Source: a virus (lineage: Duplodnaviria > Heunggongvirae > Uroviricota > Caudoviricetes). From it: DNA of 64,000 nucleotides. How positions within the stretch are numbered: position 1 is the stretch's first letter; each line of letters starts with the position of its first letter. Below the pieces are notes generated by a model, which made no database searches, was not told where the DNA came from, and saw only the letters and a program-made list of their open reading frames with translations. Location: positions 1-64,000 of IMG/VR virus record IMGVR_UViG_3300047560_001287. One strand, 5' to 3'. The position numbers were made by a program, and so were the translations under genes. Of this stretch, positions 17,348 through 49,760 are shown one piece after another.

Positions 17348-17376
17348 TTGACAATAAATCAAAATAGTAGTATACT
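17348..17376 (+). promoter_or_regulatory. sigma70-like promoter TTGACAATAAATC...TATACT (diverged copy of cassette family)
   Basis: -35 TTGACA 17348-17353, 17-bp spacer, -10 TATACT. Confidence 0.5.
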
Positions 17377-18795: not shown

Positions 18796-19022
18796 TGACC
18801 TTTGTTGAAAACGACACTAAGATTAGAGCGATTCGTCAAGGTGATTATGACTTCTACATAACCGACGGTACTAAGTTGTCACCTCGTGCATACATTGAAA
18901 TCTCAGATGTGTGTCCTGCTAATCTTAAATTAGCTATTCAGAGAGCAATGACTGATGGTTACCTTAAAACAGTAGCGTGTGTCAAAGAAAAAGATTACGT
19001 TTGGGAAAAACTAAGCGGTTGA
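18789..19022 (+). CDS. hypothetical protein (77 aa)
   Basis: TAATG overlap start. Confidence 0.4.
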   Translation: MVMTFVENDTKIRAIRQGDYDFYITDGTKLSPRAYIEISDVCPANLKLAIQRAMTDGYLKTVACVKEKDYVWEKLSG

Positions 19023-26438: not shown

Positions 26439-27065
26439 ATGGAACAGTACTCAATAATAGGTATCAGTGGTGCCGTCGATCCTTTTCTAGTTGAAACATT
26501 TCACAAGCTAGGAGTTTCAGCTACATACAACGTGAGCAAACCATTATCTGACCATCAAACTGCAATCATTGTTTCATATGGTCATGGAGGTTTTGCTTGG
26601 ACGATGACCTCACATTTTCTTTCACACGTTCGTAAATTAACACCCTCTAACTTCACTGATTGGAAAAGACATTGGGTCGGTGAAGGTGACATATCATGTA
26701 AAGAAGATATCACGCCCGAACGTTGGGCTAGACATGTTTTAGTCAGTCATAAACATATTGGTGCAAAAGAACCATTGAACGGGTTGTTTGTTGAATTAGA
26801 AAAACGAATCAACAATGATAATTGCCCTAGACATGAAATCAAACTTGAAGATATCGTAACAGACCCTGAGAAAGTTTTGTCACAGATTAGTCAAATTCTC
26901 AACAAAGAAATACCCGATGATGTACGTTCCTTCTTCCTGTCAGCGTTGAAAAACAAGAAGGAAATCATGGCTCCCTGGATGAATACTTTAGTACTACAAA
27001 ATAATAATTCCCGAAACTTGACAATAAATCACTTTGGCTATACAATTGACTTATTGATTGATTAA
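26439..27065 (+). CDS. divergent member (H) of the sulfotransferase-fold-like paralog family
   Basis: N-terminal IIGISGAVD Gly-rich strand. C-terminal DPEKVLSQISQILNKEI...FF..L....EIMAPW shares the family motif. Confidence 0.45.
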   Translation: MEQYSIIGISGAVDPFLVETFHKLGVSATYNVSKPLSDHQTAIIVSYGHGGFAWTMTSHFLSHVRKLTPSNFTDWKRHWVGEGDISCKEDITPERWARHVLVSHKHIGAKEPLNGLFVELEKRINNDNCPRHEIKLEDIVTDPEKVLSQISQILNKEIPDDVRSFFLSALKNKKEIMAPWMNTLVLQNNNSRNLTINHFGYTIDLLID

Positions 27066-27076
27066 AGGAGCATCAC

Positions 27077-27403
27077 ATGGTTGTAACTGAAACAGAACAC
27101 AAATCAGCTGGTCGTTTTGCATTCTTTGCCGCACGTGATGCAAGTATGAAAAGCGCAGTCAATGCAAGTCGTTTTACTGATAGTCAAAAACTAAAAGCCG
27201 AACGTGTCAAGCTAGCCCTTGAAATGGTCTATGCTTGCGAAGCCGTTACTATTGATAACTGTCAAAAATGGATTCGTGTGAAAGTTCACAAGCCAATGAT
27301 ACGTGACCGTAAGAATTTGCGTTTGCTTGAGCAAGATTGGCATTTGGAAGGTATTGAAAAAGTTCAAACCAAGCAAGATGCTATCATTTATCGTGTAAAA
27401 TAA
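27077..27403 (+). CDS. hypothetical protein (108 aa)
   Basis: AGGAG RBS. Confidence 0.45.
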   Translation: MVVTETEHKSAGRFAFFAARDASMKSAVNASRFTDSQKLKAERVKLALEMVYACEAVTIDNCQKWIRVKVHKPMIRDRKNLRLLEQDWHLEGIEKVQTKQDAIIYRVK

Positions 27404-27404
27404 T

Positions 27405-27433
27405 TTGACAAATAATCATTTTGGGCGTATAAT
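27405..27433 (+). promoter_or_regulatory. conserved promoter cassette TTGACAAATAATCATTTTGGGCGTATAAT
   Basis: Near-identical to cassettes at 46251, 46779, 47051. The conserved leader ATTGA..AAAAGGA follows. Confidence 0.6.
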
Positions 27434-27459: not shown

Positions 27460-27660
27460 ATGTTGTTAAAAGGTCGTGTTGTTGTTGATGTTGAGATTGA
27501 CGGTGTTGATAGCCGTGATTACCCAGATTTTTGTGATGCATATTTTTCTCATGCTGTCTTTAAAGATACGCTAGAAGAATTGTCCGATGAAGAACTCGAA
27601 CAACTCACCGAAGACAATCCGGATGTAGTCAACGAAATGGCTTACGAACACTATCTGTAA
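27460..27660 (+). CDS. hypothetical acidic small protein (66 aa)
   Basis: Start at second ATG, which carries the AAAAGGAA RBS shared by cassette genes. Confidence 0.45.
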   Translation: MLLKGRVVVDVEIDGVDSRDYPDFCDAYFSHAVFKDTLEELSDEELEQLTEDNPDVVNEMAYEHYL

Positions 27661-39234: not shown

Positions 39235-40437
39235 ATGTCACTTGAATCACTAAACCATTGCTCATTTTGCGGAAATCATAAAGATAAAGTTAAAAAACTT
39301 ATAGTAGGTGAGGACGTTGCTATTTGTAGCGACTGTATCGATTTATGCACACAATTAATCGAAGATGACGCTACCGTTGCCGATCCTGACCAAAAGAAAG
39401 AAGAAGTCAAGTATGACCCTATCGCTATCAAGGCGTACTTAGACCAGCATGTTATCGGACAAGATAGTGCTAAAACTGTATTGAGCGTTGCTATCGCTAA
39501 CCACTATAAGCGAATCACACACCCGCCCAAAGACTTAGAAATAGCTAAGGGTAATGTTCTTATTGTGGGGCCCACTGGTAGTGGTAAAACATTACTTGCT
39601 AAGACAGTTGCCAAGTATCTCAAGGTGCCCTTTGTCGTAGCAGACGCAACAAGTTTAACCGAAGCTGGTTATGTAGGTGATGACGTTGAATCAATGATTA
39701 GTATGCTAGTCAATGCCGCAGGTGGTGATGCTAAATTAGCAGAACGTGGAATTGTGTTTGTTGACGAGATTGACAAAATTGCACGTAAGGGCGAATCAAC
39801 TAGCGTTACCCGTGACGTGTCGGGTGAGGGCGTTCAGCAAGCATTACTCAAGTTAGTTGAGGGCACAGTCTGTCGTATTCCTGCAAGCGGTGGTCGCAAA
39901 CACCCAGGTGGTGAAATGCTAGAAATCAACACAAAGAATATTCTGTTCATTGCTGGTGGCGCATTCGTTGGATTGAAGGAAATCATCACAAATAGACAAC
40001 ATGGAACTAGTATTGGCTTTGGGGCAAATATCAGAGATAAGCGCAAAGAGGGTGAGTTAGCACAAGTAAGCCCCGACGACCTAACTAAATTTGGAATGAT
40101 TCCTGAATTTATCGGTAGATTCACGACTACTGTAAGTATTAAAGAACTGTCCAAAGACGAGTTAAAACATGTCCTGACCAATGTGAAAAACAACTACATT
40201 GAGCAATACAAGTACCTGTTCAGCATTGATGAAATTGAGTTGGAGTTTGCTGATGACGGACTTGGCCAGATTGTTGACAATTGCTTGAAACTGAAAACGG
40301 GTGCCCGTGGTCTACACACTGAAATCGAGAGGGTCCTAATGCCCCATATGTTCAATTTGCAGAAATATCGTGAAAGTAAAATCAAAAAGATAAATATTAA
40401 TCAGGAGCAAGTTTTAGAACCAAAAGCATTGATATGA
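39235..40437 (+). CDS. clpX: ATP-dependent Clp protease ATP-binding subunit ClpX
   Basis: Zinc-binding CSFCG...CSDC. Walker A GPTGSGKT. Pore-1 GYVG. ClpP-docking IGFGA loop. Sensor GARGL. Collinear with E. coli ClpX. Confidence 0.95.
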   Translation: MSLESLNHCSFCGNHKDKVKKLIVGEDVAICSDCIDLCTQLIEDDATVADPDQKKEEVKYDPIAIKAYLDQHVIGQDSAKTVLSVAIANHYKRITHPPKDLEIAKGNVLIVGPTGSGKTLLAKTVAKYLKVPFVVADATSLTEAGYVGDDVESMISMLVNAAGGDAKLAERGIVFVDEIDKIARKGESTSVTRDVSGEGVQQALLKLVEGTVCRIPASGGRKHPGGEMLEINTKNILFIAGGAFVGLKEIITNRQHGTSIGFGANIRDKRKEGELAQVSPDDLTKFGMIPEFIGRFTTTVSIKELSKDELKHVLTNVKNNYIEQYKYLFSIDEIELEFADDGLGQIVDNCLKLKTGARGLHTEIERVLMPHMFNLQKYRESKIKKININQEQVLEPKALI

Positions 40438-40655
40438 GTATAAAGGGTAGACGAGTAATAGTACAAGACGGGAATGTTGAAAAAGCATTACGCAAATTCA
40501 AAAAGAAGATTACTGAACAAGGATTGATTCAGGAAGTCCGCGACCGTCAAGAATTCGTCAAACCCACTGTCAAGCGAAAACTTGCTAAAGGACAAGCCAA
40601 GCGTAGATGGCAAAAATACTTGCGTGACCAGAGCTTGCCCAAGAAACTATATTGA
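40434..40655 (+). CDS. rpsU: 30S ribosomal protein S21
   Basis: ALRKFKKKITEQGLIQEVRDRQEFVKPTVKRKLAKGQAKRR matches bS21. ATGA overlap with clpX. Confidence 0.85.
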   Translation: MSIKGRRVIVQDGNVEKALRKFKKKITEQGLIQEVRDRQEFVKPTVKRKLAKGQAKRRWQKYLRDQSLPKKLY

Positions 40656-40762
40656 CCTAAATATTAGATTTTTTTGCGTATTTTTTATAAAATAAATACG
40701 TATTCAGATGCCGATGGTCGGGTCTGAAACATGTCATACTTGCTTATTAAAGGAGAAAACAA

Positions 40763-41200
40763 ATGACAAAAACACTATCCCTTCGTTCCCTCGACATTCC
40801 GTCAATTCACAAATTTGGTATCGGTTTCGATAACATGTTTGACGATTTGATGCGATTAAACAGTCAACAATCACTAAACTATCCCCCATACAACATCGTC
40901 AAAAATACCGAAGACTCCTTCGATATTGAGATTGCTGTATCTGGCTTCAGTGAAGGTGAAGTTGAGGTCAATCTTGACAACCGAGTATTGACTGTTAAGG
41001 GTCAGAAGAAGGAAGACTTGGTAGCCGAATACCTACACAAGGGTATTAGCACACGTGATTTCGTGCGTGAGTTTACGCTAGCAGAGCACGTTGAAGTTAT
41101 CAATGCTTCACAAAAAGACGGCATTCTAACTATTCAACTAGAACGTGTTGTTCCAGAAGAAAAGAAGCCAAAAGCAATTGCTATTAATTACACTAAATAA
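40763..41200 (+). CDS. ibpA: small heat-shock protein (Hsp20/IbpA family)
   Basis: GGAGAAAACAA RBS. Alpha-crystallin domain: PPYNIVK..FDIEIAVSGF..EVEV..LTVKG, GISTRDFVREF, ILTIQL. Confidence 0.85.
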   Translation: MTKTLSLRSLDIPSIHKFGIGFDNMFDDLMRLNSQQSLNYPPYNIVKNTEDSFDIEIAVSGFSEGEVEVNLDNRVLTVKGQKKEDLVAEYLHKGISTRDFVREFTLAEHVEVINASQKDGILTIQLERVVPEEKKPKAIAINYTK

Positions 41201-41210
41201 TATAATAGCT

Positions 41211-41239
41211 GTGAGTAGTCGTTAGGCTACTCACTTTTT
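41211..41239 (+). terminator. rho-independent terminator after ibpA
   Basis: GTGAGTAGTC-GTTA-GGCTACTCAC stem then TTTTTC. Confidence 0.6.
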
Positions 41240-41264
41240 CAACTATTAGATAAGTGATATTAAA

Positions 41265-41576
41265 ATGTCTAAAACGCAAACAGAAACAAAAATCAAAATT
41301 AAACCCAATCTAGCGTTACAAGAACCACCGTTGTACAAAATCATTTATATGAATGACGATGTGACTAGTATGGAATTTGTAGTGGGTAGCTTAATCGATT
41401 ATTTCAACTACACCGAAGACACAGCCTCGAATATCACTGTAAATATTCACGAGCAGGGTTCTGCGGTCGTTGCAGTACTACCATACGAAATTGCCGAACA
41501 AAAGGGAATTGAAGTTACGTTAGATGCACGTAGCCAGGGATATCCGTTACAAGTCAAAATCGAAGCAGAAGGTTAA
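41265..41576 (+). CDS. clpS: ATP-dependent Clp protease adaptor ClpS
   Basis: PPLYKIIYMNDDVTSMEFVVGSL...VNIHEQGSAVVAV matches ClpS core. Confidence 0.8.
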   Translation: MSKTQTETKIKIKPNLALQEPPLYKIIYMNDDVTSMEFVVGSLIDYFNYTEDTASNITVNIHEQGSAVVAVLPYEIAEQKGIEVTLDARSQGYPLQVKIEAEG

Positions 41577-42265
41577 ACTTCTATTCGTTTCGCCCAATAA
41601 GGCTTTCTTCCAAAATAAGAGTTATTGATATAGTTGATACCGTTGATATGTGTATCAACTATTTTTCTATACGTCCCGTAAACCCAATGTGTTACTTTCT
41701 TTTCAGTATCAACTGGTAACACCATGTCTAGGGAAAGTTGAGTTACTGTTGTTTCAGGCTCTTCACCGAAATACAGAACTGGACCTGGAACACTATTAGA
41801 AACTAGGATAACGCTTTTTACGTCCAAGTGTTTCTGTAATCTTTCTAGTGTTGATTTGAGGTAAGATAAATCCTCATGTCTTGCGTTTTCAATTGCTTGT
41901 TCAGAATCAAAATCTGTAGGTACTGTATTTCCGTACCAGCCGTTTGCCCCTGCAATTGCTATACCATCTATGATTACAACGTGATGGTGTAGATACGCTG
42001 TATTCTTTACTCCTCTACATATCTTCTGTAATTCACTAGTTCTTTTATCTATGTCAATTACATTATTATATTCCAGAGATCCAGAGATATAAAATACCCC
42101 TTGATAAAATTTTGACAAATGAAGTAGGGTTTGTCTAATCGTTCTTAATTCGTCACTAATGTTTCCTGCAATTATGCAGTATAGACTAGTAGCTTTACCC
42201 TCCCAATTGAAACTATCCTCAGGGGATAGATTCAAATCGCTGATTACATCAAACCCTATTTTCAT
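41573..42265 (-). CDS. hypothetical protein (230 aa); possibly degenerate metallophosphoesterase fold
   Basis: ISDLNL / AGNISDE / ISGSLEYN loosely echo calcineurin-like motifs but metal ligands are not conserved. Confidence 0.3.
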   Translation of the reverse strand: MKIGFDVISDLNLSPEDSFNWEGKATSLYCIIAGNISDELRTIRQTLLHLSKFYQGVFYISGSLEYNNVIDIDKRTSELQKICRGVKNTAYLHHHVVIIDGIAIAGANGWYGNTVPTDFDSEQAIENARHEDLSYLKSTLERLQKHLDVKSVILVSNSVPGPVLYFGEEPETTVTQLSLDMVLPVDTEKKVTHWVYGTYRKIVDTHINGINYINNSYFGRKPYWAKRIEV

Positions 42266-42585
42266 TACTTTGCGACGGTCATTTTTGGCTTTTTAGGCGC
42301 CTTTGGTTTTGCTGTCTTTTCTGCTTTTGGCTTAGCAGGTGCTTTAGCTTTCTTTGGCTTAGCTGTCATTGCGGCCGCAGGTGCTTTAGTAGCGTTTGGA
42401 TTATCTGCGTGTACAGCCCATTCTTCTGGGGTCAACTTGTGTAGACCTACACAGTTTCCTGTCTGACTGCGACCACACCCACATTTAGCAGGACCAGCTT
42501 GAACCGGCGTTTCTACTTTATATGGTGCTTCAGGTGCAGTTTCAGATGTACCGAAACCAAACAACTTCTTTAGATAGTTTAACAT
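42265..42585 (-). CDS. small Cys-cluster protein with AKPK-repeat basic tail
   Basis: CGCGRSQTGNCVGLH then KPKKAKAPAKPKAEKTAKPKAPKKPK. Confidence 0.45.
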   Translation of the reverse strand: MLNYLKKLFGFGTSETAPEAPYKVETPVQAGPAKCGCGRSQTGNCVGLHKLTPEEWAVHADNPNATKAPAAAMTAKPKKAKAPAKPKAEKTAKPKAPKKPKMTVAK

Positions 42586-42652
42586 GTTATTCTCCTTACA
42601 GTTTATTTATCTACTCATACATTACGTCACTTTAATCTTTAAATAAAATATT

Positions 42653-43144
42653 ATGCTCAGAAAAAACGTGCTTTTAGATTTGATGCAGGAAGAACCCCCT
42701 AGCATTAGTTATCAAAAACGCCTTGGATATCGAACTGATATCTATGAGGTCATATACCTATACCGACTGATAAACAAAGCTGTTTTCAAAAATGCACTAG
42801 AAATGCCAGAAATCGAGGTAGTTCCTAGATGTAGGAAATACTGGGGTATGTGCTATGCATCATGGGAAAGATTACCCGGTCGTAGAAGTTATTGCAAAAT
42901 ACGATTGATGGACAAGTGGTATTCGCATCATTGGTTAATATCAACATTAGCACATGAAATGTGCCACCAGTATCAGTGGGATATACAGGGTGCTCAAAGA
43001 CGTAGTAAGGGCAAAGAGCCTATTATGAGTCATGGTCCCAGTTTCTTTGTTTTCCGAGAAAAATTAAAGAAGCATGGCATTCCACTAAAAAGCGCACACA
43101 GTAAACGCAAATGGTTCAAGACACAAGATTTGTTTAAAACATAA
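42653..43144 (+). CDS. SprT-like zinc metallopeptidase domain protein
   Basis: LAHEMCHQY HExxH motif in SprT-like context. Confidence 0.55.
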   Translation: MLRKNVLLDLMQEEPPSISYQKRLGYRTDIYEVIYLYRLINKAVFKNALEMPEIEVVPRCRKYWGMCYASWERLPGRRSYCKIRLMDKWYSHHWLISTLAHEMCHQYQWDIQGAQRRSKGKEPIMSHGPSFFVFREKLKKHGIPLKSAHSKRKWFKTQDLFKT

Positions 43145-43163
43145 AATCGCATAAATACACATT

Positions 43164-44690
43164 ATGCGTGATATTTTAAACAACCTAGAACTATTAACAG
43201 AAAGTACCGGTTTAGCAGGACGTAAACCAGGTGACTTATTCCGTAACTCACACGGTGATGAAATTGTATTCCAGAGTATTCAATTTTTCCCCGAAGGTGG
43301 TGGCAAATATACGCCTGAACAATTAGACCAAGCAATTGCAGACGTTGAACAACAAGTAGGCGACATTGATTGGCAGAATCAAAAAACTGCACGAGCAGGT
43401 GGATTCGGTATAGCAACATTCACCGGCGCACAAGGTAATATGGTTATAGGTCGTTATTTGCAAGAAATTAATCCAAACATAAAGGATAATTACATTGCAA
43501 ATAAAGTAGGTGATTTCAAGTACGCAGGCAAAGCCGCAGAAAAAATTCAATCAGGTTTAAGCCCGCAAGATTTATTAGGTGATAGAATTGATTTAACTAT
43601 CGCTGATGTTATGAACCAATTAGCAATGAGCTTGGGTACTGATAACCCTCTATACGCTGTAGCACATAGATTAGCGACAGGTAGTCCATTACCAGTAACG
43701 TTCCCGACACCAGAAGGATATAGCTTTACTGCTTTCCGTGATTACTTCTGTGAAATTTTACAACCAATCGCATTACAAAAAGGTCAATACACAGGTAACG
43801 CAGGTGAAGCCGCTGAGAAATTTATGGGTGGTTCATTTGAGAACACATTAATTTCTTTTGACGAAAGCAAAACAGCAGGTTTAAGCGATAGTATATTGAC
43901 TAATGATAGCGGACAATTTATTAAAATTAGTACCAAAGGTGGCAAGGGTGCAACAGCTAGTGCTAAAAATTTGTTAGATACAATTGAAGAATTGAAACTA
44001 ACAAAAGAGGGCAAGAAACTGTTAAGCAAATACAAAGACGTTATTGATATGTTGCAACAAATCAAAGATGCAGGTCAAGCAGGATCACCTTTATTATTAG
44101 GTTTGCGTTATGGCATCATTGATGAGAAAGATGCAAAATCAATTGAAGAATTAAAAGGTGTGGGTCCAGTTAATTTAACACACATTGCTACTATGGGTCT
44201 AAGCAAGAACTTACAAAAACTTGCTAACCAGCGTGGTACAGATAACCCAGATAGTGTTAATTTATTCTATCACTTGATTGCCGCTGTAGCACACAAAGCC
44301 GCAGACGAAGTGAACAAGCATACAAACTTTAGTAAGGCAGCTGCCGAAATTTTAAACAACGGTGCGTTGGTACAAGTTTACACTTCGGCAAAAGAAAATA
44401 AAGATTCATGGACACTAGGTGAATTCGACACAGTTTACCCAGGTGACTCAATCAAAGGTGTTTACCTATCAGCAGGTAAAACATATTACAGTACAGGTAT
44501 CAAAGGAAACTTTACATTCAAAATTGATAAAGGTAAGGGAGTTCCGAAAGATGAAGATGAAGGTGAGAAGGGTGAAGCTACAAAATCAAGTGGCAGATCA
44601 ACTCGCCGTGGATTAGAAAAAGCCGCACAACAAATCACTAATCCACAAAATAAACCCACTGAACGTGGCATGCGTAGCACACGTAAATAA
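43164..44690 (+). CDS. hypothetical protein (508 aa), basic C-terminal tail
   Basis: Long ORF. Function unrecognised. Confidence 0.5.
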   Translation: MRDILNNLELLTESTGLAGRKPGDLFRNSHGDEIVFQSIQFFPEGGGKYTPEQLDQAIADVEQQVGDIDWQNQKTARAGGFGIATFTGAQGNMVIGRYLQEINPNIKDNYIANKVGDFKYAGKAAEKIQSGLSPQDLLGDRIDLTIADVMNQLAMSLGTDNPLYAVAHRLATGSPLPVTFPTPEGYSFTAFRDYFCEILQPIALQKGQYTGNAGEAAEKFMGGSFENTLISFDESKTAGLSDSILTNDSGQFIKISTKGGKGATASAKNLLDTIEELKLTKEGKKLLSKYKDVIDMLQQIKDAGQAGSPLLLGLRYGIIDEKDAKSIEELKGVGPVNLTHIATMGLSKNLQKLANQRGTDNPDSVNLFYHLIAAVAHKAADEVNKHTNFSKAAAEILNNGALVQVYTSAKENKDSWTLGEFDTVYPGDSIKGVYLSAGKTYYSTGIKGNFTFKIDKGKGVPKDEDEGEKGEATKSSGRSTRRGLEKAAQQITNPQNKPTERGMRSTRK

Positions 44691-44703
44691 TTAACCAAAT
44701 CTA

Positions 44704-44732
44704 TTGTAGTTATAAAAACTCTCTGTTATACT
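44704..44732 (+). promoter_or_regulatory. possible promoter TTGTAG-17-TATACT upstream of clpP
   Basis: In 68-bp gap. Followed by TAAGGAGAG RBS. Confidence 0.4.
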
Positions 44733-44758
44733 ATAGGTATCACTAATTAAGGAGAGTT

Positions 44759-45352
44759 ATGAGTTTAGTTCCAATCGTTGTTGAATCAACAAGTAAAGGC
44801 GAGCGTAGTTATGACATTTATAGTCGCCTTCTAAAAGACCGTGTCATTCTCCTAGAGGGTGAAGTTCATGACCACATGGCAAACTTAATTGTTGCCCAAC
44901 TATTGTTCTTGGAAAGTGAAGATGCGACAAAAGACATTTCTATGTACATTAACTCGCCCGGTGGTAGTGTTACCGCAGGCATGGCGATCTACGATTGTAT
45001 TCAGTTTATTAGTCCCGATGTACAGACGATTGTTATGGGTCAGGCATGTAGTATGGGTTCTCTCCTCGCACAAGCGGGAGCGCCAGGCAAAAGGTTTATG
45101 CTCCCCAATGCACGACACATGATTCATCAGCCATCGGGTGGTGCTCGTGGTATGCAAAGTGATATTGAAATCAGTTACAAGGAAATCACTTACTTGAAAA
45201 AGCGACTAACTGAAATCTATGTTAGCCACAATTCAAAGGGCAAAACATACGAGGACTTTGAACGTGACATGGATCGTGATAAGTTCATGTCAGCACAAGA
45301 GGCGTTAGAGTACGGATTGATTGATGAAATCGTAACAAAACGCAATGCTTAA
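44759..45352 (+). CDS. clpP: ATP-dependent Clp protease proteolytic subunit ClpP
   Basis: Ser-His-Asp triad contexts: [45 protein letters not shown]. Confidence 0.95.
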
Positions 45353-46017: not shown

Positions 46018-46254
46018 ATGAACGCAGACCACAATGATTTACTAGGACGTGAGGTCAAAATTGATGACTATGTTGCATTTTGTCATCACAATAGCCTATA
46101 TGTTGGGAAAGTTATTAAAGTGACACCTAAGCAGGTTCGTGTCATTCCCATTGGTGCAGGGCGCTGGCGTGAAGAAGGTATGCTAAAGTATACAACACAA
46201 TGCTGTCTTGTAGGTGGACCTGAACTCACGTTCCATATCTTAAAAAACGGTTGA
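46018..46254 (+). CDS. hypothetical protein (78 aa)
   Basis: Stop TGA lies inside the next -35 TTGACA. Confidence 0.4.
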   Translation: MNADHNDLLGREVKIDDYVAFCHHNSLYVGKVIKVTPKQVRVIPIGAGRWREEGMLKYTTQCCLVGGPELTFHILKNG

Positions 46255-46279
46255 CAATAAATCGTTTTGGGCATATAAT
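46251..46279 (+). promoter_or_regulatory. conserved promoter cassette TTGACAATAAATCGTTTTGGGCATATAAT
   Basis: Perfect -35/-10 consensus with 17-bp spacer. First of three tandem copies. Confidence 0.65.
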
Positions 46280-46306
46280 TCTTCTATTGAGTCAAAAGGA
46301 GTTTGT

Positions 46307-46567
46307 ATGTCTATCAAGCGTTTCAAGCAATCCCAAAATTTTCGTGTTATCATCGGTGGTGGTGTTATCACTAGCGGTGTCTCATTCTACGCAACTGCTA
46401 AACAGATTCGTAGCGGTGTCGGTGACTTTATGACCTGTAACGCCGCAATACAAAAGGCTCTTGACGCCCTCGAATTCACCCGTTCGGGCAAAGGTGCCGC
46501 AGACCAGTGTGCTATGGGTCTCGTAGGTACTTGGGAAGGTCTTCAAGTTCAACTCAACATTGCTTAA
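46307..46567 (+). CDS. hypothetical protein (86 aa)
   Basis: AAAAGGAG RBS in conserved leader. Confidence 0.5.
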   Translation: MSIKRFKQSQNFRVIIGGGVITSGVSFYATAKQIRSGVGDFMTCNAAIQKALDALEFTRSGKGAADQCAMGLVGTWEGLQVQLNIA

Positions 46568-46578
46568 AGGTAATACTT

Positions 46579-46782
46579 ATGAGTTACATTAGTTTCATTC
46601 CAAAACATGACTACAAACCCCGCAAAGGTCTTGAGGGCCCGTTCGCATACCCCTCGGGTAAAGTTTTGTATTACGATCCTAAGGAAGGAAAGTACTACGA
46701 TCCTACTACCGACTTCTATTTGGAGCATGACGAAGCATCCATCTATTTGAATGAGGTGTTTGATATCCTCAGAAAAGGTTGA
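46579..46782 (+). CDS. hypothetical protein (67 aa)
   Basis: Internal ATG after upstream stop. Stop TGA lies inside the next -35. Confidence 0.4.
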   Translation: MSYISFIPKHDYKPRKGLEGPFAYPSGKVLYYDPKEGKYYDPTTDFYLEHDEASIYLNEVFDILRKG

Positions 46783-46807
46783 CAATAAATCATTTTGGGC
46801 ATATAAT
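46779..46807 (+). promoter_or_regulatory. conserved promoter cassette TTGACAATAAATCATTTTGGGCATATAAT
   Basis: Second tandem copy. Confidence 0.65.
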
Positions 46808-46835
46808 ATAGTCTTATTCAGTTGAAAGGGTTCGT

Positions 46836-47054
46836 ATGAGTTTCACACAATACATGCTTGAATTTTATGGTCCAAATGGTATCTATCCTGAGTATGGGTT
46901 TACTGCAACCCAAATCAGTCTCGCTACCCAACTTTATAAATGCCGCTTGCCTGAAGGCGAAGAATTTTGCGGTGATAGTATAGACCGTGAACGTGTCCGT
47001 GACATAATCTTGTCCGCACGTGAATCTGTGGTTCCCGAGTACGCCAAAATTTGA
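46836..47054 (+). CDS. hypothetical protein (72 aa)
   Basis: GAAAGGG RBS in conserved leader. Stop inside next -35. Confidence 0.45.
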   Translation: MSFTQYMLEFYGPNGIYPEYGFTATQISLATQLYKCRLPEGEEFCGDSIDRERVRDIILSARESVVPEYAKI

Positions 47055-47079
47055 CAATAAATCGTTTCGGGTATATAAT
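47051..47079 (+). promoter_or_regulatory. conserved promoter cassette TTGACAATAAATCGTTTCGGGTATATAAT
   Basis: Third tandem copy. Confidence 0.65.
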
Positions 47080-47113
47080 AGAATCTTAAACAGTCAAACA
47101 ACAGGAGTTAAAA

Positions 47114-47638
47114 ATGGGTACTCGTTCAGTTATCGGCGTGATGCATGGCAACAAAGCAAAAACTGTCTACTGTCATTGGGACGGCTATCTTGACCACAAC
47201 GGTCGCATCCTGTTGGAGCACTATAATTCTAGCAAAGCAAATCATCTGGTTGCGATGGGCGGCTTGTCTAGTCTTGGTAAAGAACTCGGTGAAAAGCACC
47301 CCTTCAGCCCGCACGAATGTGACAGCAAAGATCCTCTGGAACAAAAGCGTGTCCAAGACGAATACAATGCCGCTAAAGATAAAGGCTGGTGTACATTCTA
47401 TAAGCGTGACCGTGACGAGGAAGGTAATGAATTCCAAGTGTGTCAATCTGACAAAGAAATGTACGAACAGTATCCTTGGTGCGAATACTTTTACTTGATG
47501 CAAGACGGTGTCTGGTATGTATCACAAGGTGCGGACACTGAGTGGAAAGTTTTGAGTGATGCTATTCGTGAAGAAGACGAGCCCGGCTATAAGGCACCTA
47601 GCGTTACTCGTTTCATTGGCATGTTGGAGTCAGCATGA
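47114..47638 (+). CDS. hypothetical protein (174 aa)
   Basis: ACAGGAG RBS. Confidence 0.5.
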   Translation: MGTRSVIGVMHGNKAKTVYCHWDGYLDHNGRILLEHYNSSKANHLVAMGGLSSLGKELGEKHPFSPHECDSKDPLEQKRVQDEYNAAKDKGWCTFYKRDRDEEGNEFQVCQSDKEMYEQYPWCEYFYLMQDGVWYVSQGADTEWKVLSDAIREEDEPGYKAPSVTRFIGMLESA

Positions 47639-47796
47639 AAGGTGCTATAATCTGTTCATTGACGATGATACTGGCTTGCTTCTTAGTTGAATCATGGCAT
47701 GATATTCCGAATTATGAGAAAGCGTTGGAAACAGGTTGGAATCAAACTGTTGCTATTCTAATTTACAGCTGGTTTTGGGTTAAGGAAGAACGATGA
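47635..47796 (+). CDS. small membrane protein (53 aa)
   Basis: ATGA overlaps at both ends. Hydrophobic N-terminus. Confidence 0.3.
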   Translation: MKGAIICSLTMILACFLVESWHDIPNYEKALETGWNQTVAILIYSWFWVKEER

Positions 47797-48155
47797 AATA
47801 CTATCAAGAGGTAACTAATTGGGGTAGTGATACTGCACCTAATCACATTTATTACCTCAATGATGAAAAGTCCTTCATGGTTGGGTACATCAAGCAAGGT
47901 ACTAAAGAGCTATTCAAGTTTAAAAATCCTATCCGCATCGACATGCGCGGTCGGAAGTTTGAATTATTGAAAACTAAAGGCGAACCCGATAGTGTTTATT
48001 TCGGTAAGAAAGAAGAACCGAATAACGCTATCGAGGTTCAGGGTTCAAATGGAAAGAAGTATTACCTAACTAAAGTAGGCAATAAGTATACATGTACGTG
48101 TCCTGGTTTTACATTTCGTCACACATGTAAACACATTAATGAAGTAAAGATATGA
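47793..48155 (+). CDS. hypothetical protein (120 aa) with C-terminal CTCPG..CKH
   Basis: ORF. Confidence 0.45.
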   Translation: MKYYQEVTNWGSDTAPNHIYYLNDEKSFMVGYIKQGTKELFKFKNPIRIDMRGRKFELLKTKGEPDSVYFGKKEEPNNAIEVQGSNGKKYYLTKVGNKYTCTCPGFTFRHTCKHINEVKI

Positions 48156-49508: not shown

Positions 49509-49760
49509 ATGATGACAAAGAGCGAACGCCTAGTTGAGGCACTAAAGAGCGGTGAGAAGCTAACCGCTAAACAAATTGCTTCACGTTTTGGCATTGCTAA
49601 CCCAACTGCCACTGTCAGTGACTTGCGCTTGCGCGGTGGCCATGCAGTTTATGCTAATGAGCATAAAGATGCAAAAGGTAACATCACTGTTAAGTACGAA
49701 TTGGGTCGTCCAAGCCGTAAAGTTGTAGCCGCAGGCTACCGTGCATTGGCACAAGTCTAA
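49509..49760 (+). CDS. small putative DNA-binding (HTH-like) protein
   Basis: AAAGGAAA RBS. LTAKQIASRFGIANPTATVSDLR helix-turn-helix-like segment. Confidence 0.4.
   Translation: MMTKSERLVEALKSGEKLTAKQIASRFGIANPTATVSDLRLRGGHAVYANEHKDAKGNITVKYELGRPSRKVVAAGYRALAQV

Follow-up and report, generated by a model that had tools for sequence, protein, structure and literature searches.

The window analyzed in this study is a stretch of 64,000 nucleotides (nt), covering positions 1 to 64,000 of the IMG/VR virus record IMGVR_UViG_3300047560_001287 (Caudoviricetes). It represents an accessory-gene-rich part of a large phage genome, has a GC content of about 38% and contains no tRNA genes. We identified a repeated promoter-like element in a region which is bordered by a gene for a ClpP-like protease on the left and by gene g174 on the right (Table 1). 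The 29-mer TTGACAATAAATCRTTTYGGGYATATAAT matches exactly at three sites in this region, all on the + strand, and the mean number of matches expected by chance is 0.00, with up to three mismatches allowed, in 100 dinucleotide-preserving shuffles of the window. The initial annotation had presented these sites as three tandem copies. Their number is correct, but they are dispersed direct repeats at distances of 528 and 272 bp, one ahead of each gene, and not a tandem array. All three copies contain TTGACA and TATAAT separated by a 17-bp spacer, the arrangement of a sigma70-type promoter (TTGACA / 17 ± 1 bp / TATAAT), and score 12 out of 12 in a scan with the general bacterial sigma70 consensus, which may not be that of the host. 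The perfect hexamers and the conservation of the spacer, which differs at just three positions among the three copies, had been noted in the initial annotation and were found again here. The leader had been described as conserved as well; the leaders in the window are of different types and share only ..AGTYRAA..AGGAG. The predicted promoter together with the leader that follows it is referred to below as a cassette.

The genes g78, g67 and g72 each terminate on a TGA which corresponds to positions 2-4 of the TTGACA hexamer. It had been proposed that the open reading frames (ORFs) in front of the promoters all end on GG-TTG-ACA. This is true for the TGA in the -35 box (3/3 copies), but not for the GG, as the third copy has AAAATT in front of the hexamer. 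Of 273 window-type sites in related contigs, 124 have an ORF of 50 codons or more that terminates on the TGA of the -35 box, and only 18 ORFs enter the promoter in the other two frames. Since a random frame would give a ratio of 1:2, this indicates a strong frame bias, and the stop within the -35 box is a recurrent feature rather than an accident of three sites. A plausible rationale would be that the stop keeps each module self-contained: a crossover anywhere in the 29-mer would leave the upstream ORF terminated and the downstream promoter complete. GG directly 5' of the -35 box (positions -37 and -36) is the commonest dinucleotide in all promoter styles (201/436 and 102/273 sites) and results in a C-terminal Gly (GGT) ahead of the TGA. 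A built-in three-frame stop in the leader (TTGATTGATTAA) was also considered. Stops in all three frames between the -35 box and the ATG are present in 139 of 249 cassettes versus 157 of 249 shuffled cassettes, and the idea was therefore dropped.

Table 1. Promoter copies, leaders and genes in the window; positions are those of the window.
Feature	Position	Strand	Remarks
Half-copy	17348-17376	+	TTGACAATAAATCA..TATACT; ends 6 nt 5' of the ATG (17383) of the 5'-3' exonuclease gene
Diverged copy, 3 mismatches	27018-27046	+	TATACAAT-type -10; leader ..attgattgattaaaggag; ATG at 27077
Diverged copy, 3 mismatches	27405-27433	+	Probable ATG at 27460
ClpP-like protease gene	44759-45352	+	Conserved left-hand anchor of the variable region
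g78 (78 aa)	46018-46254	+	No family match; TGA at 46252-46254, within the -35 of copy 1
Promoter copy 1	46251-46279	+	TTGACA, 17-bp spacer ATAAATCGTTTTGGGCA, TATAAT
Leader 1	46280-46306	+	tcttctattgagtcaaaaggagtttgt; Shine-Dalgarno AAGGAG; ATG at 46307
g86 (86 aa)	46307-46567	+	Function not assigned; orthologues in 10 other contigs likewise behind a window-type promoter
g67 (67 aa)	46579-46782	+	Without own cassette in the window; TGA at 46780-46782, within the -35 of copy 2
Promoter copy 2	46779-46807	+	Spacer ATAAATCATTTTGGGCA
Leader 2	46808-46835	+	atagtcttattcagttgaaagggttcgt
g72 (72 aa)	46836-47054	+	TGA at 47052-47054, within the -35 of copy 3
Promoter copy 3	47051-47079	+	Spacer ATAAATCGTTTCGGGTA
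Leader 3	47080-47113	+	agaatcttaaacagtcaaacaacaggagttaaaa; most frequent type of leader in this family; ATG at 47114
g174	47114-47638	+	phrog_1987, function not assigned; conserved right-hand anchor of the variable region

Spread of the cassette and its leaders

The exact 29-mer was found in at least 117 phage stretches of IMG/VR, on contigs of up to 367 kb. No matches were obtained in 185,579 bacterial and archaeal species genomes, and the possibility that the 29-mer is a copy of a host promoter was rejected for want of an exact match in these genomes. The cultured phage records of INPHARED contained no match either, and a literature search for the motif string returned no relevant paper. A sequence logo was built from 236 unique window-type sites, in all of which both hexamers and the 17-bp spacing are invariant. 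The logo extends beyond the 29-mer on both sides. Upstream it shows AAA followed by R and G, and downstream an A immediately 3' of TATAAT. Motif position 37 is nearly always a T; being located eight bases past the last T of TATAAT, it would be close to the expected transcription start. The 3' part consists of an A-rich run with GGAG at its end. All copies have the orientation of the coding strand. An ATG, with AAGGAG in front of it, is located 53-65 nt (mostly 58-62 nt) from the start of the motif in 204 of 232 cases. The ORFs downstream have a median length of 80 amino acids (aa).

The proteins encoded behind 249 unique sites fall into 83 clusters, representing at least 83 unrelated families of small genes. 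Two leader classes together account for 198 of these sites: class 1 (AGAATCTTAAACAGT.. / ATAGTCTTATTCAGTTGA..) is present at 111 sites in front of 46 gene families and class 2 (ACWTGTATTGATTGATTAAAGGAG) at 87 sites in front of 42. A single gene family can have either leader class, depending on the contig, indicating that promoter and leader form a unit which is uncoupled from the gene behind it. The modular cassette put forward in the initial annotation is well supported by this spread over unrelated families, by the varying number of cassettes in the interval between ClpP and g174, and by the presence or absence of a 272-bp unit described below. It had also been called a duplicating unit; the promoter and leader are indeed repeated, but the genes behind the copies in the window are not paralogues of one another (blastp E > 0.5).

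Scanning the window with the 29-mer, as the initial annotation had suggested, revealed two further copies with three mismatches each and a 5' half-copy (Table 1). In the two diverged copies the stop is not located in the -35 box. ORF 26439-27065 runs through the promoter at 27018 and ends on a TAA at 27063, within the leader, and ORF 27077-27403 terminates 1 nt 5' of the TTGACA of the copy at 27405. The leader at 27018 is close to the second large leader class, although clustering on 18 nt puts it in a small separate class. The promoter-like half-copy ends so close to the ATG of the 5'-3' exonuclease gene that it suggests a leaderless mRNA for this gene. Consensus-like promoters with unrelated spacers are present at 19019, 29996 and 60479 of the window, the former two with TATACT as -10 box. 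The promoters at 19019 and 29996 precede larger genes, encoding a protein of 283 aa and a ligase of 449 aa, indicating that the fixed-spacer promoter type is, to judge from the sites in the window, tied to small accessory genes.

Constraint on the spacer and spacers of sister lineages

A set of loci that does not depend on the motif was obtained by selecting 80 loci on protein similarity to g174 alone (45-68% identity). About 64 of these have a TTGAC-type -35 box and a TATAAT-like -10 box, 16-18 bp apart, upstream of the gene, with the -35 box starting about 55-63 nt 5' of the ATG; no consensus-type promoter was found in the 90 nt searched at the remaining loci. The window spacer is present in only about 20 of the loci. 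Mean pairwise identities were calculated for 14 g174 orthologues with a window-type promoter (13 loci and the window). The 30 nt upstream, which belong to different upstream genes, are 29% identical, the 29-mer 88%, the spacer 80% and the first 15 nt of the leader 94%, compared to 58% for third codon positions of g174 and 84% for its first and second codon positions. The level of conservation of the spacer thus lies between that of silent sites and that of the hexamers.

The spacer varies only at positions 14, 15 and 22 and, to a lesser extent, at positions 13, 18 and 21. All combinations occur and about 13 of the 17 positions are nearly invariant, a pattern which points to position-specific purifying selection on the spacer and not to mere homogenization. 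The Hamming distance between copies of the 29-mer is 2.96 within a locus versus 3.33 between loci, and the observed value was reached in 0 of 2000 permutations. The spacer shows no dyad or direct-repeat symmetry: the best stem averages 3.08 bp versus 3.13 bp in shuffles (280 window-type sites). With neither symmetry nor a known cognate protein, the two hallmarks of an operator within a promoter, the case for an operator is lowered, and asymmetric recognition is compatible with these results. As about 13 of 17 positions appear to be under purifying selection and the spacer is lineage-specific, the constraint on this sequence reaches beyond recognition of the hexamers. Candidates for its source are an optimum for polymerase or DNA shape, a need for homology, and a lineage-specific partner, which could be a phage factor or a different host polymerase.

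The lineage specificity became apparent from a second spacer style, TTGACCRATAATTSCCNNTTTGCTATAAT, which contains a TGn extended -10 and is present in at least 120 IMG/VR stretches. Loci found with the window-type pattern (1.09 Mb) contain 525 generic consensus promoters, 288 window-type promoters and 0 promoters of the second type, and loci found with the second pattern (1.03 Mb) contain 440 generic consensus promoters, 0 of the window type and 242 of the second type. The two styles are thus mutually exclusive by locus, yet both occur in the same IMG samples. The second promoter style, GGTTGACCRATAATTSCCNNTTTGCTATAATA, was found in IMG/VR loci L279-L398 and never in loci holding the window type.

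Further spacers were observed in other related loci. A palindromic GC-rich spacer is present in L124 (at 1374, 2941 and 3861), L129 (at 466, 815, 1826 and 3660) and L181 (at 2). Its stem, with the CA of TTGACA at one end and the TG ahead of the -10 box at the other, is preserved by compensatory changes (CAGGGGA..TCCCCTG, CACGGGA..TCCCGTG and CAGAGGA..TCCTCTG). At position 2713 of L118 the left half of the window spacer is part of a perfect 9-bp palindrome (ACAATAAAT..ATTTATTGT). L123 contains two window-like promoters (TTGACATTAAATGGTTTTGGGTATATAAT; at 1564 and 1858) beside six promoters with other spacers, a mix that may have arisen by transfer of a cassette between lineages.

Module exchange and competing explanations

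The interval from ClpP to g174, g120 and g283 has conserved ends and is variable inside, with 2-7 cassettes among the relatives and different gene sets and gene orders. A cassette of its own precedes g67 in L038, L131 and L149; in the window, L167, L126 and L031 the gene is located behind g86 without a cassette. In the window the end of g67 is followed by copy 2, g72, copy 3 and g174. Alignment with L126 and L167 showed that in these relatives the end of g67 is followed by a single cassette and g174, so that a 272-bp unit comprising leader 2, g72 and the next promoter, bounded by a direct repeat of the 29-mer, is absent. Positions 46773-46825 of the window are 98% identical to positions 5084-5136 of L038, where they precede an unrelated gene encoding 95 aa. 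The DNA identity to relatives is about 70-78% for core genes and 81-98% for cassettes, the latter over 45-66 nt. The best reading of these observations is that the cassettes act as recombination junctions, or swap points, for small genes.

T4-type phages contain repeated early promoters of a strong, sigma70-like kind which begin at the upstream gene's stop codon and are known as promoter-early stem-loop cassettes, or PeSLs (Arbiol et al. 2010, PMC2839356; Comeau et al. 2014, PMC4122927). PeSLs are located next to small orphan genes, in variable "hyperplastic" regions that separate conserved genes, and provide homology for the insertion, deletion and replacement of gene modules (PMC2839356, PMC4122927). 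The window cassettes share these properties. They are repeated promoters of strong sigma70 consensus at gene junctions, they start at the upstream stop codon (stop in the -35 box at 3/3 window sites and 124/273 family sites), they lie in a variable region next to small genes without known relatives (median 80 aa), and the breakpoints of indels and replacements fall within them (the 272-bp unit compared to L126 and L167, and the other gene in L038). In the sister loci L124, L129 and L181 the palindromic GC-rich spacer corresponds to the commonest PeSL layout. Unlike in PeSLs, the whole 17-bp spacer is fixed in the window type, the stop is inside the -35 hexamer instead of in an AT-rich stretch upstream, the leaders are of a few stereotyped kinds, and the carrier belongs to an uncultured lineage which is not close to cultured phages. 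The definition of PeSLs also includes measured promoter and terminator activity and excised mini-circles; the window cassettes are predicted elements. Neither a stem-loop nor a terminator was detected in them. DNA folds of five window cassettes gave z-scores from -1.19 to +1.82 without a common stem, and at Rfam gathering thresholds no known RNA family was matched anywhere in the window. A hairpin of the upstream AAAACGG with CGTTTT of the spacer was rejected, as it is present in copy 1 only. Overall, the window elements appear PeSL-like in every tested respect but the stem-loop, and we regard them as a variation on a strategy already described for phages, here in a lineage that is itself undescribed.

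Early ("uber") promoters of T4 are composed of UP, -35, TGn and -10 elements plus an extra consensus whose meaning is not understood, and some of them respond to Alt for reasons that are not known (Hinton 2010, PMC2988021). The window promoters resemble them in combining a near-perfect consensus for the host polymerase, in a large phage, with extra conserved positions outside the canonical elements. They differ in having no TGn extended -10 (GGGYA is found ahead of TATAAT), and a complete UP element is replaced by just a short run of A (AAA, -40 to -38). In the sister spacer type, TGC is present ahead of TATAAT. Stoperators of cluster A mycobacteriophages are repressor sites of temperate phages that are scattered through the genome, separate from promoter hexamers, and have a known cognate repressor. 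Like stoperators, the window repeat is short, asymmetric, present in many copies of a single orientation relative to transcription and specific for a phage lineage, but its conserved bases fill the spacer of a promoter and no sign of lysogeny was found in the window.

We consider it likely that the repeats are strong promoter-leader cassettes of the host sigma70 type, probably early ones, which double as recombination junctions. A cassette of about 55-65 bp would consist of a sigma70-type promoter, a leader of 25-35 nt of stereotyped kind and a Shine-Dalgarno sequence, and would drive a single small accessory gene, or occasionally a pair, in a large or jumbo phage that is uncultured. As the hexamers and their spacing match the host consensus, host RNA polymerase would be expected to fire from the cassettes upon entry of the DNA and to express the genes behind them early; the early timing is suggested by the perfect host-type consensus and by the small genes of unassigned function. 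Identical cassettes in direct orientation also serve as patches of homology at which, according to the comparison with relatives, recombination inserts, deletes or exchanges modules between conserved genes. A promoter for a phage single-subunit RNA polymerase, which would show a single conserved block at the start site and no host-type hexamers, is not indicated, as the host-type hexamers and their spacing are the invariant parts of the repeat, and none of the ORFs scanned in the window, which is a part of the genome, encodes an RNA polymerase. Several points weigh against the proposed role. The window-type cassette lacks the stem-loop that defines PeSLs, what is called host consensus is the general bacterial sigma70 consensus, and the promoters are predicted ones. 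The recombination role is derived from one clean indel and variable gene order, without observed recombinants. Most site sets were collected with the motif itself, which inflates the apparent conservation within it; the protein-selected g174 set corrects for this in part, as the 14 orthologues compared were chosen for their window-type promoter. The grouping of promoter types on the g174 tree by the unweighted pair group method with arithmetic mean (UPGMA) is rough.

The fixed spacer leaves room for other explanations. In line with the additional factor suggested in the initial annotation, it could be an operator-like code read by a lineage-specific protein, phage-encoded or delivered with the virion, with sigma70 still using the hexamers. 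This protein might activate the promoters, modify the polymerase in the manner of Alt or act as a repressor for early shut-off, and by it the phage's own early promoters would be told from those of the host or of competing phages. We regard this as possible, if doubtful. The spacer hardly varies at about 13 of its 17 positions in contigs with core genes of about 70-78% DNA identity, and positions 14, 15 and 22 are free to vary; the sister lineages have another fixed spacer, and the two do not co-occur in about 1 Mb sampled from each; both types turn up in the same IMG samples; the bacterial genomes searched do not contain the motif; and the extra consensus of T4 early promoters, some of them Alt-responsive, is a precedent (PMC2988021). 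However, the spacer lacks dyad or direct-repeat symmetry (3.08 bp versus 3.13 bp in shuffles), no candidate protein is tied to it, as a winged-helix protein encoded at 49512-49760 is simply located nearby, and L123 combines two window-like promoters with other spacers in one locus. Different hosts of the two lineages would account for the lineage specificity without a phage factor, and these data fit equally with a DNA-shape optimum for the host polymerase or with selection for recombination homology. A further-reaching version, in which fixed lineage-specific spacers are recognition codes and each jumbo-phage lineage carries or injects a protein that reads its own spacer, seems unlikely to us. 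If true, it would give a phage private control of early genes by the dozen, which could be boosted or shut off at a set time, and would make its own promoters distinguishable from those of the host and of co-infecting relatives in the same waters.

A spacer without any function beyond its length, the uniformity of which is a by-product of recent spread of the cassette by duplication, gene conversion and exchange (concerted evolution), is quite improbable in our view. Movement or recombination of the cassettes is demonstrated, 29-mers from one locus resemble each other slightly more than those from different loci (2.96 versus 3.33; 0/2000 permutations), and lineage-specific styles are what molecular drive predicts. 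But this within-locus effect is small, the consensus has not drifted among contigs in which orthologous proteins are 36-63% identical and third codon positions 58%, and the same three or four positions vary everywhere and in all combinations, as expected from position-specific constraint and not from linked haplotypes. We give hardly any weight to the repeats being mainly another DNA signal, such as a recombinase or nuclease site or a replication or packaging signal, that happens to hold the hexamers. Their behavior as recombination junctions and the conservation reaching past the hexamers would fit with such a signal; the hexamers and 17-bp spacing are, however, invariant in the 236 unique sites, each copy has the orientation of the coding strand and keeps a fixed distance to the Shine-Dalgarno sequence and ATG behind it, and relatives with other spacers have retained exactly the -35 box, the spacing and the -10 box.

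If the repeats are promoter-leader cassettes that double as junctions, a portable unit of about 60 bp, with stop, promoter, leader and ribosome-binding site, would be the means by which uncultured and apparently widespread large phages wire and reshuffle their accessory genes. For annotation, the motif flags genes with a likely role early in infection or in host takeover, across hundreds of metagenomic contigs. Since the two spacer styles are mutually exclusive, it also marks membership of a lineage. Fixed spacers that differ between sister lineages offer a clean system for studying what a strong promoter encodes beyond the contacts of sigma70 with the hexamers, and the cassettes could serve as natural, compact and insulated expression parts.

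Gene content and relatives of the carrier phage

Searches of INPHARED by megablast and blastn, with the region and with the cassette, gave no match, and tblastn with a neighboring gene encoding 508 aa found no cultured relative. A 40-mer searched as an exact string had no match in IMG/VR or in the metagenome contigs of JGI, and no record of the identical g174 protein was found. The DNA ligase encoded in the window is at most 35% identical to any INPHARED record. In IMG/VR 568 relatives of g174 were found, and homologues in cultured phages are confined to Rak2/GAP32/CBB-like jumbo phages, CcrColossus-like phages and some cyanophages, with 30-38% identity. The nearest cultured relatives of the carrier lineage thus share at most about 35-38% protein identity with it. 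The g174 homologue of vB_PcaM_CBB overlaps its upstream gene, without an intergenic gap, and no regulatory feature is annotated there in the record, a negative that refers to the annotation and not to a promoter scan of the DNA. The window contains no hallmark structural or replication core gene. Naming a host from ClpP was rejected, as 60-72% identity to ClpP of many Proteobacteria is too weak for this. A Bacteroidota host as for freshwater bS21 jumbo phages (PMC9723584) was rejected because the GC content differs, and the strong Shine-Dalgarno sequences together with TTGACA/TATAAT in the window argue against a Bacteroidota-type host.

No Pfam match was obtained for g78, g86 and g72, and g67 gave only an OCRE match below the threshold. 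The resemblance of g67 (46579-46782) to the OCRE domain is weak, just under the Pfam cut-off, and the protein contains a YYDP..YYDP repeat. About 2 kb downstream of the cassettes, at about 49512-49760, a small winged-helix protein is encoded (Pfam HTH_39, E = 7e-5), which is a possible DNA-binding regulator; nothing ties this protein to the motif. A phage-borne cluster of chaperone, protease and ribosomal genes at 39235-45352 encodes ClpX (39235-40437), ribosomal protein bS21, Hsp20, ClpS and ClpP, all assigned from their translations, together with a SprT-like protein and the 508-aa protein, which has no family match. Other genes in the window encode DNA ligase, 5'-3' exonuclease, UvdE, GTP cyclohydrolase I, radical-SAM proteins and glycosyltransferases, and g120 (47793-48155) encodes a protein with a SWIM zinc finger.

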